Shown here one piece after another: positions 11,242 to 14,422 of a stretch of DNA of 64,000 nt; position 1 is the first letter of the stretch, and each line of letters starts with the position of its first letter. The stretch is taken from sequence record NC_048818.1; one strand, written 5' to 3'. The notes under the pieces are model-generated. The model saw nothing but the letters and a program-made list of their open reading frames with translations. It searched no databases and was not told the DNA's origin. Both the position numbers and the translations under genes were made by a program. This stretch comes from Escherichia phage VEc33.

Positions 11242-11275
11242 AGCCGGGTTGCTAGTCGACCTGGCTTTTATTTTA
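11242..11275 (+). terminator. Rho-independent terminator after nrdD
   Basis: 8 bp stem AGCCGGGT/ACCTGGCT (one G-U) followed by TTTTATTTTATTT. Confidence 0.6.
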
Positions 11276-11276
11276 T

Positions 11277-11305
11277 TTGCTTTCAGCCAAAAATTTATAT
11301 ATAAT
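11277..11305 (+). promoter_or_regulatory. T5-type early promoter (TTGCTT, 17 bp, TATAAT, downstream AGATTTATAAATTTGAGAGGAG)
   Basis: TTGCTT 11277-11282, TATAAT 11300-11305; SD then ATG 11334. Confidence 0.7.
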
Positions 11306-11333
11306 AGATTTATAAATTTGAGAGGAGAAAGCT

Positions 11334-11624
11334 ATGAGCGAGTTGCTTCCTAAAGTAGATGTCTCCCATCTTGGGGAGCCTAGTGAAGAACGTAAGGCTC
11401 TAGATTGGTTGGGTGGATTTGATTATCGTCGTGTTGTTGCAACATGGAATGATAAGAATGATAAGAAAGTTAAGAAGTTTCGGGTACATTATGTAGGTAA
11501 AGACAAGTGGCTCTGGATTGATTATGAAGAATCAAAGGGGTCTACTAAGGCTGTGAAAATTTATTGTATGTATGGGTATTATTATGCTCACTGTGATAAG
11601 AATGAATTTACAGTACAGAACTAA
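11334..11624 (+). CDS. Hypothetical protein (96 aa)
   Basis: ORF track; strong promoter and SD GAGAGGAGA upstream. Confidence 0.6.
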   Translation: MSELLPKVDVSHLGEPSEERKALDWLGGFDYRRVVATWNDKNDKKVKKFRVHYVGKDKWLWIDYEESKGSTKAVKIYCMYGYYYAHCDKNEFTVQN

Positions 11625-11633
11625 GGAACAAGA

Positions 11634-11837
11634 ATGAAAAACGTAAAACATCTTAAATATCGCTTAATTTACAACGGACGTATGGAAACAGAAGATCTGG
11701 CCCAATTAGCTATTACTTCTAATGAGGTTACGGTGCGTGCTCTGGCAATTGAAAAGTTGCGTGCCTCTTATGAAAATCGTGTTATGGAACTGGAGGAGAA
11801 ACTTTATGGACTTCTTGAATCAGAATCTAAAAAGTAA
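11634..11837 (+). CDS. Hypothetical protein (67 aa)
   Basis: ORF track; AGGAACAAGA upstream. Confidence 0.5.
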   Translation: MKNVKHLKYRLIYNGRMETEDLAQLAITSNEVTVRALAIEKLRASYENRVMELEEKLYGLLESESKK

Positions 11838-12000
11838 TCCAGAAAACATGCTTATTGAGCAATGGAACTTTGGTTATAATGCTGGTGTAGCTACTTGTAT
11901 TGCTAGATTGGATACGCTTATTAAGCAAGAAAAGGTACGCCCTGAGGAAGCAATTTTACTCCGAAATATTATCGAAGGATTTAAGCAAGGAATCGTATAG
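11806..12000 (+). CDS. Hypothetical small protein (64 aa); internal start of ORF-track 11722..12000
   Basis: ATG at 11806 preceded by GGAGGAGA SD; overlaps the end of the upstream ORF. Confidence 0.4.
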   Translation: MDFLNQNLKSNPENMLIEQWNFGYNAGVATCIARLDTLIKQEKVRPEEAILLRNIIEGFKQGIV

Positions 12001-12836
12001 TGCGTAGATTAATTATTATTAGCGGTGCAGGTTTGAGTGTTGAAAGTGGTGTACGAGCTTTTCGTACTGATACTGCTAGTGGTAAAGCATTGTGGGATGA
12101 TTATGATCTAGAAGAAGTATGTAATATTCATGCCTTTCGTGGTAATTTTTATCATAAAACCCATATGTTTTACAACAAACGTCGTGAAGAGCTAAAAACT
12201 GTTGAACCCAATCTTGCACATTTGCGTATTGGTGAATGGTATAAACAATATCCAGGTCAAGTAGTAAACTTGACTACCAACGTTGATGACCTTATTGAGC
12301 GTGCTGGCGTTCCACATAGTGACATTCTGCACATTCACGGATATTTAAAAGAGGTTGTTGTAGCTGATAGCTACAATAGTAGCAATAAACGGATTATTGA
12401 TGTAGGGTATAATTCTATTGATCCAGATGATTATAAATGGGTTAAACCTAATGTAATCTTCTTTGGAGAACATGCTCCTGCATACGCAGAAATGTATAAT
12501 GTTTTTGATGGTATTACCAGTCAAGATATGATCATTGTGGTTGGTTGCTCTAATCAAGTAATTAACTTCTACTGGGAATTATTTCCTGTTCTTAATTTGA
12601 CTGCTGCCAAACTAATGGTAGTTAACTACTATGATAGTGCCATAGCAGCAGAGCCAGGCTATCAAGGTATGACTCGTAGTGAGATGTACCAACTGGAAGA
12701 TCGTGGTATTCCTTACTGGAGTAATGGTGCGGTAGATGCTTTTAGTGACCCTGATTTTATTGCTCGTGTGGAAGCCCATTTAGAGGGTAGACCTTATGTG
12801 CCGGAGAGAAGGGGAAACAGATATGTCCATAGTTAA
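12000..12836 (+). CDS. Sir2-family (sirtuin-like) NAD-dependent enzyme, no zinc-ribbon cysteines
   Basis: GTG start overlapping upstream stop. Motifs GAGLSVESGVRAFR, NLTTNVDDLIERAG, HIHG, VIFFGE, VVGCSNQV match the Sir2 catalytic core; the CxxC...CxxC Zn module is absent. Confidence 0.75.
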   Translation: MRRLIIISGAGLSVESGVRAFRTDTASGKALWDDYDLEEVCNIHAFRGNFYHKTHMFYNKRREELKTVEPNLAHLRIGEWYKQYPGQVVNLTTNVDDLIERAGVPHSDILHIHGYLKEVVVADSYNSSNKRIIDVGYNSIDPDDYKWVKPNVIFFGEHAPAYAEMYNVFDGITSQDMIIVVGCSNQVINFYWELFPVLNLTAAKLMVVNYYDSAIAAEPGYQGMTRSEMYQLEDRGIPYWSNGAVDAFSDPDFIARVEAHLEGRPYVPERRGNRYVHS

Positions 12837-13005
12837 ATCTGTTTATACACATCCCGATGATATATTTGTATGGGCGGACGGTAGTTGGTGCTATCGCTGT
12901 GAGCTATGGGAAATGGACTATAAATCCGATGATTATGGTGTCATATATGTTGATACGGTTGAGTATGATACGTTCTTAGAAAGGGACAAAAATGGAAATA
13001 AGTAA
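12823..13005 (+). CDS. Hypothetical small protein (60 aa)
   Basis: ATG 12823 with GGGGAAAC SD; in frame with ORF-track start 12796. Confidence 0.4.
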   Translation: MSIVKSVYTHPDDIFVWADGSWCYRCELWEMDYKSDDYGVIYVDTVEYDTFLERDKNGNK

Positions 13006-13498
13006 TACTCCAATTATTTTTCTAGATATTGATGGGGTGCTCAACTCGAGCATCTCCCATCACCATGCACCTGATGATGAAAAGATTTTCTTTGGAAGTG
13101 ACTGGGTTTTTAAACCGCTTCTCAAGGCTTTTCAGGATTTTATTCGTCCTTCTCCAATAATGATTGTTGGGGTATCTTCATGGTTCTCTGTCAGGAATGA
13201 GATGGAGAACGTTCAGATTATGACCGGATTAGATCTTATCGATCGTTTTCTTGGTACAACGGATTTTACTGGTGGTGGATTATCTAGGGGTAATTCTGTT
13301 CTTCGCTTCGTTGAAAAGCATAAGCTCAAACATTGGTGTGTGCTGGATGATGCTGGTGCTATGATGTATCAGTATCCAACGGTTATAGTCAATGGTAGAA
13401 CTGGAATAAATCTTCAAGATTTAAGAGCTGTTAGCTATATGTTAGAATTTAGTCCAGATCTTGAAATGTGTAAAGCCCTGCAACAATTTAAGGTGTAA
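12992..13498 (+). CDS. HAD-superfamily-like hydrolase (putative phosphatase/nucleotidase)
   Basis: N-terminal motif I IIFLDIDGVLNS (hhhhDxDGV) and later WCVLDDAG (hhhDD). Confidence 0.5.
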   Translation: MEISNTPIIFLDIDGVLNSSISHHHAPDDEKIFFGSDWVFKPLLKAFQDFIRPSPIMIVGVSSWFSVRNEMENVQIMTGLDLIDRFLGTTDFTGGGLSRGNSVLRFVEKHKLKHWCVLDDAGAMMYQYPTVIVNGRTGINLQDLRAVSYMLEFSPDLEMCKALQQFKV

Positions 13499-13500
13499 AT

Positions 13501-13929
13501 ATGTTCAATAATGTATTCTCTAAAGAGGCTAACCCGATATTGGTTAATTTTTGGCGTACTCTTCCAGCCAACCTGTACAATGAGGCTATTAATGCTTTGA
13601 AAATATGGTGTGAGAATAATGAAATCTCCTTTGCTTTTAAAGGTGAGATTGAAGAGGCTCCCTGTATTGGTTTAATTGTGCAGGTGGAGGATGGTCTTGA
13701 AGAGATTGTCGGCTGGAAAGAGTTGGATGAAATGGGCTTGGTTTTTGCGTTAAACTATAAGCTGTTTATGCCCAATAAACACCGTATTGTTGTTAACTAT
13801 AAAACCAATGAATCTCCTGGTTTTCAAGTTAATGAACGGTATGGTTGGTCTTACTCACCAGAAGAAGTAAATGATGGTATCCAAAAACTTCGTCGTTTTG
13901 GTTATCAAATTCCGGGTTTAACCGCCTAA
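13501..13929 (+). CDS. Hypothetical protein, paralog A of a tandem pair
   Basis: Shares PCIG, E(L/M)xxMGLxxALN(Y/F)xLF and C-terminal (Q/Y)(I/V)PGL with the next ORF. Confidence 0.6.
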   Translation: MFNNVFSKEANPILVNFWRTLPANLYNEAINALKIWCENNEISFAFKGEIEEAPCIGLIVQVEDGLEEIVGWKELDEMGLVFALNYKLFMPNKHRIVVNYKTNESPGFQVNERYGWSYSPEEVNDGIQKLRRFGYQIPGLTA

Positions 13930-13938
13930 GGGGGCACA

Positions 13939-14331
13939 ATGGAACAAGTATATTGGCGTCAGATCGACCCTAGTTTGGTGAAGCGTGCAGAGAAGCTGCT
14001 ACAACGTTGGTTGGGGGTAAGACAAGCCTCCTTCACTTTTCCGGAGCAGCAAATAGACGATCCCTGTATTGGTGTTTTCCTATCAGGCTACGCTAGGGAA
14101 TGGGAATTGGATTGGAATGAGTTGTCTGCTATGGGTTTAATTGTTGCCCTAAATTTCTCTTTGTTCCATACACGTGGTTTGGCTATATGTCGTGTGCCTG
14201 ATGACGGTTGTTCGCCCCATCTTTTACAGGTGGAAGATGATATTTGGGAGTACACTCCAGATATTCTCAAAGAAGCTAAAGAACAATTAAATCGTGCTGG
14301 GATTTATGTTCCAGGCCTGAACGATGAATGA
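13939..14331 (+). CDS. Hypothetical protein, paralog B of a tandem pair
   Basis: See paralog A; SD GGGGGCACA upstream of ATG. Confidence 0.6.
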   Translation: MEQVYWRQIDPSLVKRAEKLLQRWLGVRQASFTFPEQQIDDPCIGVFLSGYAREWELDWNELSAMGLIVALNFSLFHTRGLAICRVPDDGCSPHLLQVEDDIWEYTPDILKEAKEQLNRAGIYVPGLNDE

Positions 14332-14422
14332 GTTTTATTAGCTGAACTCTGATTACCGAGCCATTTTGACTCGGTTTTCTCTATGTTCAAAGACACTGGT
14401 AGCAGCTCCTGGAAAAATCTAC

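Follow-up and report, generated by a model that had tools for sequence, protein, structure and literature searches.

A predicted cap-less HAD-type phosphatase encoded with a Sir2-family protein in T5-like phages, and ADP-ribose phosphates as its candidate substrates

T5-like phages rank among the major model and therapy phages, and from the pairing of a Sir2-family gene with a HAD-type gene in their genomes, Iyer, Burroughs, Anantharaman and Aravind predicted NAD-dependent RNA repair (Viruses 2022, PMC9503650, section 3.7.3). In that survey, a distinct clade of phage sirtuins with a "Swiss Army Knife" (SAK)-like HAD neighbour was described from Escherichia phage SP15. The clade sirtuin was proposed to be KptA/Tpt1-like and to act on RNA 2'-phosphates, and the HAD and similar enzymes were proposed either to prepare RNA ends or to process the by-product ADPr>P. 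Here, we examined one such HAD gene, at positions 12992-13498 of a 64,000-nucleotide stretch of Escherichia phage VEc33 (NC_048818.1), which we call the window. With a sirtuin and a SAK-like HAD in a T5-like phage, the window has the type 3 sirtuin-centred neighbourhood of Iyer et al. 2022. Computational work had already described the gene, its family and its partnership with Sir2, and the analysis mostly clarifies an annotated gene rather than reporting a discovery; in the literature, we found no experimental work on the Sir2-HAD pair.

The other described systems that bear on the gene are the phage NAD+-reconstitution pathways, of which NARP1 consists of the enzymes Adps and Namat. ADP-ribose-1''-phosphate (ADPR-1''-P), which is made by the aRES defence, is unusable by NARP1, and some NARP1 operons add a phosphatase (10.64898/2026.01.28.702374). 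In the NARP1-AP operons, this is the Macro-domain phosphatase Adpp, which converts ADPR-1''-P to ADP-ribose (ADPR) (Osterman et al. 2026 preprint, 10.64898/2026.01.28.702374). The RyDEP glycosidase of NARP1 operons converts cyclic ADPR signals to ADPR (10.64898/2026.05.28.727677), and ADPR-cyclic-phosphate arises by decay of the NARP1 intermediate ADPR-PP (10.1101/2024.02.11.579819).

The open reading frame (ORF) lies exactly where a first-pass annotation had placed it, on the + strand, with an ATG start and a 168-aa product that begins with MEISNTPIIFLDIDGVLNS. Compared with 16 T5-like homologs (dS up to 1.2), it has no internal stops and a ratio of nonsynonymous to synonymous substitutions (dN/dS) of 0.02-0.09; the gene is real, and purifying selection on it is strong. 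This T5.105 ortholog encodes a protein 100% identical to those of Salmonella phage S130 and the T5-like pork29. A megablast search with 11300-14400 returned 442 phage records, and the best matches, among them Escherichia phage JLBYU40 (96.6%), were all T5-like (Tequintavirus, Demerecviridae). The HAD gene is present in more than 430 sequenced genomes, often under a wrong label. It is called "Sir2 (NAD-dependent deacetylase)" in RefSeq and PHROG 18062 (the T5 copy is NC_005859 57588-58094), "RNA repair protein" in UniRef and JLBYU40, and "hypothetical" in most records. The "Sir2" label is an annotation error that has spread through many T5-like genomes.

Fold and catalytic residues of the HAD protein

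By every computational test run, the gene product is predicted to be a small cap-less HAD-type phosphatase. It matched Pfam PF18143 (HAD_SAK_2) with E = 1.8e-20 and 74.2 bits against a cut-off of 27.5, and the match spans the whole model (residues 8-143 on profile positions 1-138 of 139); in NCBIfam, no model matched. Judging by the Pfam name and by Iyer et al. 2022, HAD_SAK_2 is reportedly the HAD domain of the SAK RNA-repair proteins of Burroughs and Aravind (2016). A profile search of 1.84 billion representatives gave 8,520 related clusters at E <= 1e-3, mostly stand-alone proteins of 150-190 aa. The domain fusions among the representatives, namely tandem HAD_SAK_2 proteins with two or three domains and one Metallophos-HAD_SAK_2 protein (P0070, P0111, P0104, P0106, P0041), are uninformative on the substrate.

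The complete set of HAD motifs is present (Table 1), and together with the Pfam match, it supports the HAD phosphatase call of the first-pass annotation, whose "later hhhDD" motif is the WCVLDD of motif IV. The residues F10-N18, S62, S63, W64, R99, D119 and D120 are invariant in 14 homologs with identities down to 36%. Among 44 diverse HAD_SAK_2 members (20-46% identity), D12, R99 and D119 never vary, and conservation of D14, S62, W64 and D120 is 90% or higher. Conservation of the predicted Asp nucleophile, D12, had been named as a test of the call, and it holds in all 44 relatives.

Structure prediction gave a confident AlphaFold model (predicted local distance difference test score of 94.5, predicted template-modelling score of 0.91) in which the strands follow the Rossmannoid order, strand 1 leads into a beta-hairpin flap and a cap domain is absent. 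The strands are E8-11, E31-34/E37-40 (the hairpin), E57-60, E86-89 and E115-119. In the model, the residues of motifs II-IV each lie at the expected strand end or helix start, with R99 at the N-terminus of helix 97-110, ahead of the motif IV strand. The top six Foldseek matches in the PDB were all HAD-type (probability 0.72-0.98, E 5e-3 to 2.5e-2, template-modelling (TM) score 0.37-0.45), in agreement with the fold that had been proposed. Cap-less HADs ranked first, namely MDP-1 (2WM8), KdsC-type enzymes (2P9J, 2R8E) and 3IB6, and the PNKP phosphatase domains (1YJ5, 2IA5) came lower in the list. Against viral models, Foldseek found many uncharacterised phage proteins with TM scores of 0.6-0.74. 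Sequence searches of the PDB with the protein and with the 14-sequence profile returned no relative, the sole match being to motif I of AQ2171 (E = 0.13).

Genomic context and candidate substrates

Could the HAD protein serve to recover ADPR from phosphorylated by-products of NAD+ cleavage? All intact T5-like loci examined, the window included, contain a Sir2-family gene, a small ORF and the HAD gene. In divergent Demerecviridae contigs, whose HADs are 39-43% identical, the Sir2 link is kept with the order reversed (PhoH, then divergently the HAD, an 81-119 aa ORF and Sir2), and it also holds in the contigs that are without nrdD (L066, L067). The closest relatives outside the T5-like family are HADs of 36-41% identity from Vequintavirinae-type phages: the Serratia phages ChuuTotoro and Kashira, the "Acinetobacter" phage ABPH49 and two metagenomic contigs. 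In the ChuuTotoro-type relatives, the HAD gene is followed, sometimes after a small ORF, by a PRPP-synthetase-like gene (Adps) and a NAPRTase-family gene (Namat), which were found in L004, L006, L065, Kashira and ABPH49. The NAPRTase-family gene matched the SpbetaL1 Namat structures 9W5X/9W5W with E = 1e-115, compared with 1e-48 for true Nampt; therefore, the gene pair represents the NARP1 pathway. In ChuuTotoro, the HAD stop and the Adps start overlap by 4 nt. Since the next-best matches of the ChuuTotoro HAD among 50,697 phage records are the T5-like HADs, both groups belong to one subfamily. The NARP1 adjacency of the closest non-T5 relatives is a new observation of this analysis.

Further NAD+- and ADPR-related neighbours were found with more distant members. 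In an uncultured Prevotellaceae metagenome-assembled genome (CADCBZ010000005.1; L135 891-7611), a distant HAD_SAK_2 member lies in a co-directional array of MoxR AAA+, vWA, HAD_SAK_2, Metallophos, Zn-ribbon protein, SIR2 and ADP-ribosylglycohydrolase (ARG) genes. This array resembles the ARG-phosphatase-chaperone conflict systems of Iyer et al. 2022. A 171-kb viral contig (L040 73-6453, IMGVR_UViG_3300047560_002175) carries NMNAT/Nudix and Nampt genes (NARP2-type), an RNA ligase and HAD_SAK_2 within 6.5 kb. In Aeromonas phage Aeh1, the HAD gene sits directly after td, and the next gene encodes a DUF4326 protein, a family predicted to process ribose phosphates of ADPr (PMC9503650).

How far does the NAD link extend? 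Around 38 distant viral HAD_SAK_2 loci, 260 ORFs entered the neighbour census, and the metagenome and genome scans, with 51 and 44 loci, were searched with seed proteins for Sir2, Adps, Namat and RNA-ligase homologs. No dominant neighbour was seen for these distant members (22-34% identical), and Metallophos, SLOG and RNA-ligase genes recurred at low frequency. The link is mainly limited to the close subfamily and, outside it, to the one Prevotellaceae array and the one NARP2-bearing contig.

In the NARP1 loci of Vequintavirinae, the slot directly upstream of Adps is hypervariable, being occupied by the HAD, a Laminin_G_3-like gene, a winged helix-turn-helix gene (T5.141-like) or a 96-aa unknown. 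Ahead of this slot lies a 118-140 aa ORF that is homologous among the HAD-bearing loci L004, L006 and L065 and has weak winged-helix-like Pfam matches. A search for a small third partner shared by the Sir2 and NARP1 contexts returned nothing.

The Sir2 partner aligns to E. coli CobB (1S5P) with E = 2e-17 and retains the catalytic His (HIHG) and the NAD-binding GAGxS motif (GAGLSVESG). TTNVD stands in place of TQNID, and the protein has no Cys in the region of the CobB Zn-binding module; the Zn-ribbon cysteines are lacking. The sequence suggests a non-canonical sirtuin that is not necessarily a protein deacetylase.

The best single reading of these data, which we put forward tentatively, is that the HAD protein may be a phosphatase on ADPR phosphates. 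It would be a Mg2+-dependent HAD phosphomonoesterase, made early in infection from one operon with the phage Sir2, and its predicted substrate would be a ribose-linked phosphate on an ADPR-derived by-product of NAD+ cleavage; 2'-phospho-ADPR is another candidate, with plain ADPR as the product. In T5-like phages, the compound would come from the adjacent NAD+-consuming Sir2, proposed to be KptA/Tpt1-like in the literature, or from host defences that phosphorolyse NAD+. In the Vequintavirinae relatives, the ADPR product would feed Adps and Namat, by which NAD+ is rebuilt, and the HAD would work like the Macro-domain Adpp with an unrelated fold. NARP1 operons recruit ADPR-making accessory enzymes; therefore, a phosphatase acting on the ribose phosphates of ADPR would fit both contexts of the subfamily. 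ADPR-cyclic-phosphate belongs to the same class of compounds that a KptA-like Sir2 would release, and the reading agrees with one branch of the prediction of Iyer et al. 2022. The first-pass annotation had already suggested ADPR processing from the Sir2 pairing. This idea, still unproven, is the best-supported option, and it gains independent support because relatives adjoin NARP1, SIR2/ARG and DUF4326 genes.

A more specific form, which we hold to be doubtful, is that the T5.105/ChuuTotoro subfamily constitutes a second, independently evolved class of phage ADPR-phosphate phosphatases, HAD in fold and Adpp-like in function, that would return dead-end ADPR phosphates to ADPR. The candidate substrates are the ADPR-1''-P of RES-type defences, the ADPR-cyclic-phosphate formed by decay in NARP1, the 2'-phospho-ADPR of NADP+ cleavage and the by-products of a KptA-like phage Sir2.

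A number of observations weigh against an ADPR-phosphate substrate. No Adps or Namat homolog was found among the window ORFs, and the fate of ADPR in T5-like phages is therefore unexplained. Opening a cyclic phosphate is beyond a plain phosphatase, and the operon yielded no 2H or cyclic phosphodiesterase gene. Cap-less HADs often act at macromolecular ends, and RNA ligase genes recur near family members. At the 38 distant viral and 51 metagenomic loci, there was no consistent NAD-gene neighbour. All NARP1-adjacent cases fall in one phage clade and may therefore stem from a single insertion event. Displacement of the Macro-domain gene by the HAD was considered and rejected, as the same slot in Salmonella phage SSBI34, Cronobacter phage CR3 and Salmonella phage PVP-SE1 (L126-L128) holds unrelated genes and no Macro. 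Foldseek matched PDB structures weakly (best E = 5.5e-3, TM about 0.45), and in the literature, we found no biochemical data for any HAD_SAK_2 member.

Alternatively, the pair might heal RNA ends, which we consider unlikely though it survives best among the rivals. Like the HAD domain of T4 Pnkp, the HAD would then take 2'-, 3'- or 2',3'-cyclic phosphates off tRNA or rRNA that host anticodon nucleases have cleaved, and the Sir2 would be a KptA-like, NAD-dependent remover of the 2'-phosphate. Multi-domain RNA-repair proteins gave the Pfam family its name, Iyer et al. 2022 assigned the SP15/T5-type Sir2-HAD pair to RNA repair, about 24 tRNAs are encoded by T5-like phages, and the cap-less architecture and the PNKP phosphatase domains among the fold matches point the same way. 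RNA ligases also lie ~0.6-5 kb from members in Aeh1, L006, L029, L041, L038, L055, L062, L040, L076/L069 and L088. This proximity is loose, however, at a raw share of about 10-15% of loci. No Rnl1, Rnl2 or PNK-like (AAA_33) kinase was detected by tblastn (E <= 1) or annotated in the window and T5 1-72 kb; therefore, the repair pathway would be incomplete in this phage. At E <= 1, the PNKP phosphatase families (PF08645/PF25109) gave no Pfam match to the protein. Furthermore, translational coupling ties the closest non-T5 relatives to the small-molecule NARP1 genes, whereas the RNA ligase cluster is ~4 kb off on the opposite strand.

On the other hand, the substrate could be something else altogether, such as a protein, a sugar phosphate or a host signalling nucleotide, with the neighbours reflecting only the mosaic accessory regions of large phages. 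To this we assign a distinctly low likelihood. The 38 distant viral loci without a dominant partner are in its favour, as are the T4-like Proteus and Aeromonas phages that carry the HAD between primase and dda with no NAD genes nearby, one lineage with the HAD beside FbP aldolase and PfkB, and the top fold match, MDP-1, a protein/sugar-phosphate phosphatase. Within the T5.105 subfamily (at least 35% identity), however, the neighbour is an NAD+/ADPr gene in Tequintavirus, in the divergent Demerecviridae and in the Vequintavirinae-type phages, as far as these lineages were examined, despite the changed gene order. The exception to this rule is the 35%-identical P0022/L069 lineage, and a distant member again occurs with SIR2 and ARG.

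The first-pass annotation had offered as its alternative a nucleotidase that feeds dNMP (deoxynucleoside monophosphate) pools. The weakest option, and a very improbable one, is such a 5'-nucleotidase, acting on dNMPs, nucleoside monophosphates or nicotinamide mononucleotide (NMN) and tuning nucleotide or pyridine-nucleotide pools beside nrd, thy and frd: it draws on the location near nrdA/B, nrdD, thy and frd, on the Aeh1 copy after td and on the many small HADs that are nucleotidases (a mitochondrial deoxyribonucleotidase is at rank 33 of the Foldseek list), but T5 already has the characterised and sequence-unrelated dNMPase Dmp (T5.001), neither Pfam nor NCBIfam gave a nucleotidase-family match, the HAD is co-deleted with Sir2 in viable phages, the conserved neighbour is Sir2 or NARP1 rather than nrd/thy (L066 and L067, without nrdD, keep Sir2), and an NMN nucleotidase would oppose the NAD+ salvage in which these phages invest (PMC13464706).

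The early operon and its natural deletion

The upstream gene is a true Sir2-family protein, as the first-pass annotation had it. Its further statement that the HAD gene follows directly downstream stands in part, since both genes belong to the same operon in that order but a 60-69 aa ORF intervenes. This small ORF, which carries an annotation in T5, BF23 and JLBYU40, runs from within the 3' end of Sir2 into the 5' end of the HAD gene; in one divergent relative (L005), the ORF after Sir2 is homologous to it (phmmer E = 5e-6). The operon comprises three small ORFs, Sir2, the small ORF, the HAD gene and two DUF7415 paralogs, all co-directional (Table 1).

Table 1. Features of the HAD gene and its operon in the window (64,000 nucleotides of NC_048818.1)
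Feature	Position	Strand	Basis
Rho-independent terminator of nrdD, upstream edge of the operon	11242-11266	+	terminator scan; 10-bp stem, then T-run
Early-promoter-like site: TTGCTT, 17 nt spacer, TATAAT	11277-11305	+	read by eye
Three small operon genes	11334-11624, 11634-11837, ~11806-12000	+	PHROGs 7953 and 5827
Sir2-family protein, T5.102 ortholog	12000-12836	+	PF02146, E = 8e-25
Small ORF between Sir2 and HAD, 60-69 aa	12796 or 12823 to 13005	+	PHROG 5116
Predicted HAD_SAK_2 phosphatase, 168 aa, T5.105 ortholog	12992-13498	+	PF18143, AlphaFold, Foldseek, dN/dS
HAD motif I, FLDIDGVLN, residues 10-18; D12 as predicted nucleophile, D14 as predicted acid/base	13019-13045	+	
HAD motif II, S62 and S63, with family-specific W64; end of strand E57-60	13175-13183	+	
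Gly-rich loop and motif III, GGGLSRG; R99 for the usual Lys	13271-13291	+	
HAD motif IV, D119 and D120 within WCVLDD, predicted Mg2+ ligands; end of strand E115-119	13346-13351	+	
Two tandem DUF7415 paralogs, last operon genes	13501-13929, 13939-14331	+	PF24187, E = 3e-32 and 5e-31
Terminator-like hairpin, ACCGAG...CTCGGT then TTTTCTC, operon end	~14355-14383	+	read by eye

The nrdD terminator has an annotated terminator at the same position in T5 and BF23. The promoter-like site matches an annotated promoter of T5 and BF23, was not called by the consensus scan and probably drives the operon. The position of the downstream hairpin is that of the annotated terminator after T5.107 and BF23_00125, and the terminator scan missed it because its loop is 9 nt. 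With these terminators and the promoter-like site as annotated in T5 and BF23, the genes from 11334 to 14331 form one early operon. The DUF7415 paralogs are called "putative exonuclease" and "putative tail tube protein" in JLBYU40, labels that find no support here, and in Aeh1, a DUF7415 relative, Aeh1p318 (77 aa, E = 1e-12), is encoded 1.8 kb away from the HAD gene.

Is the Sir2-HAD module needed for growth? Shivani-like T5 phages (L021, IMGVR_UViG_2706796320) carry a single deletion of ~1.36 kb, equivalent to 11820-13180 of the window, which takes out Sir2, the small ORF and HAD codons 1-63 and leaves a remnant HAD ORF without the nucleophile. Since phages with this deletion are viable, the module is accessory and dispensable for growth, as expected for a counter-defence or repair function.

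Comparison with known systems

The VEc33 protein shares with the SP15 neighbourhood its full-length HAD_SAK_2 domain, its T5-like group and its Sir2 neighbour. It differs from the SAK proteins in being a stand-alone protein of 168 aa rather than part of a multi-domain one, and its phage has no detectable RNA ligase or kinase. If RNA-end healing nevertheless proved true, it would amount to an NAD-linked repair route working without a phage ligase. T4 polynucleotide kinase-phosphatase and mammalian PNKP (2IA5, 1YJ5, 3ZVN) resemble it as cap-less HADs with a DxDG motif I, and the T4 enzyme is likewise phage-encoded. The VEc33 protein, however, has neither a PNKP profile match nor a fused kinase, its motif III residue is Arg and not Lys, and the Foldseek matches to PNKP are at E 0.09-0.36 and TM about 0.4.

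T5 Dmp is also found in a T5-like phage and has a HAD-type motif I (WDLDGT), as read from its sequence. It is a deoxynucleoside-5'-monophosphatase of 244 aa, encoded by a pre-early gene in the terminal repeat, with no significant similarity to the HAD protein, and paralogy between the two was rejected (BLASTP E = 0.3). Dmp itself (L074 124-858), with the motif I VMIWDLDGT and no Pfam model match, may be an unclassified HAD.

The comparison with Adpp and with yeast Poa1p turns on the relatives. An ADPR-phosphate substrate would mean a new, non-Macro answer to the obstacle that phage NAD+ reconstitution meets in RES-type NAD+ phosphorolysis, and it would give a first functional handle on the phage Sir2 clade. 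If a second phosphatase class were also real, counter-defence by NAD+ reconstitution would gain an enzyme family, and the T5-like Sir2-HAD module would gain a role in the NAD+ arms race. The NARP1 adjacency turns a vague annotation into a question that can be tested by the published NARP1-AP assays. Adpp is a Macro-domain enzyme, whereas HAD chemistry proceeds through an Asp-phosphoenzyme with Mg2+, so that any likeness would be one of analogy only; the window phage lacks NARP1, and the accessory enzyme of its relatives is a HAD and not a Macro domain. As in the NARP1-AP operons, the ChuuTotoro-type relatives place a small accessory phosphatase in or next to the Adps-Namat operon, and the reaction proposed for the HAD protein would be that of Adpp, from ADPR-1''-P to ADPR and Pi.

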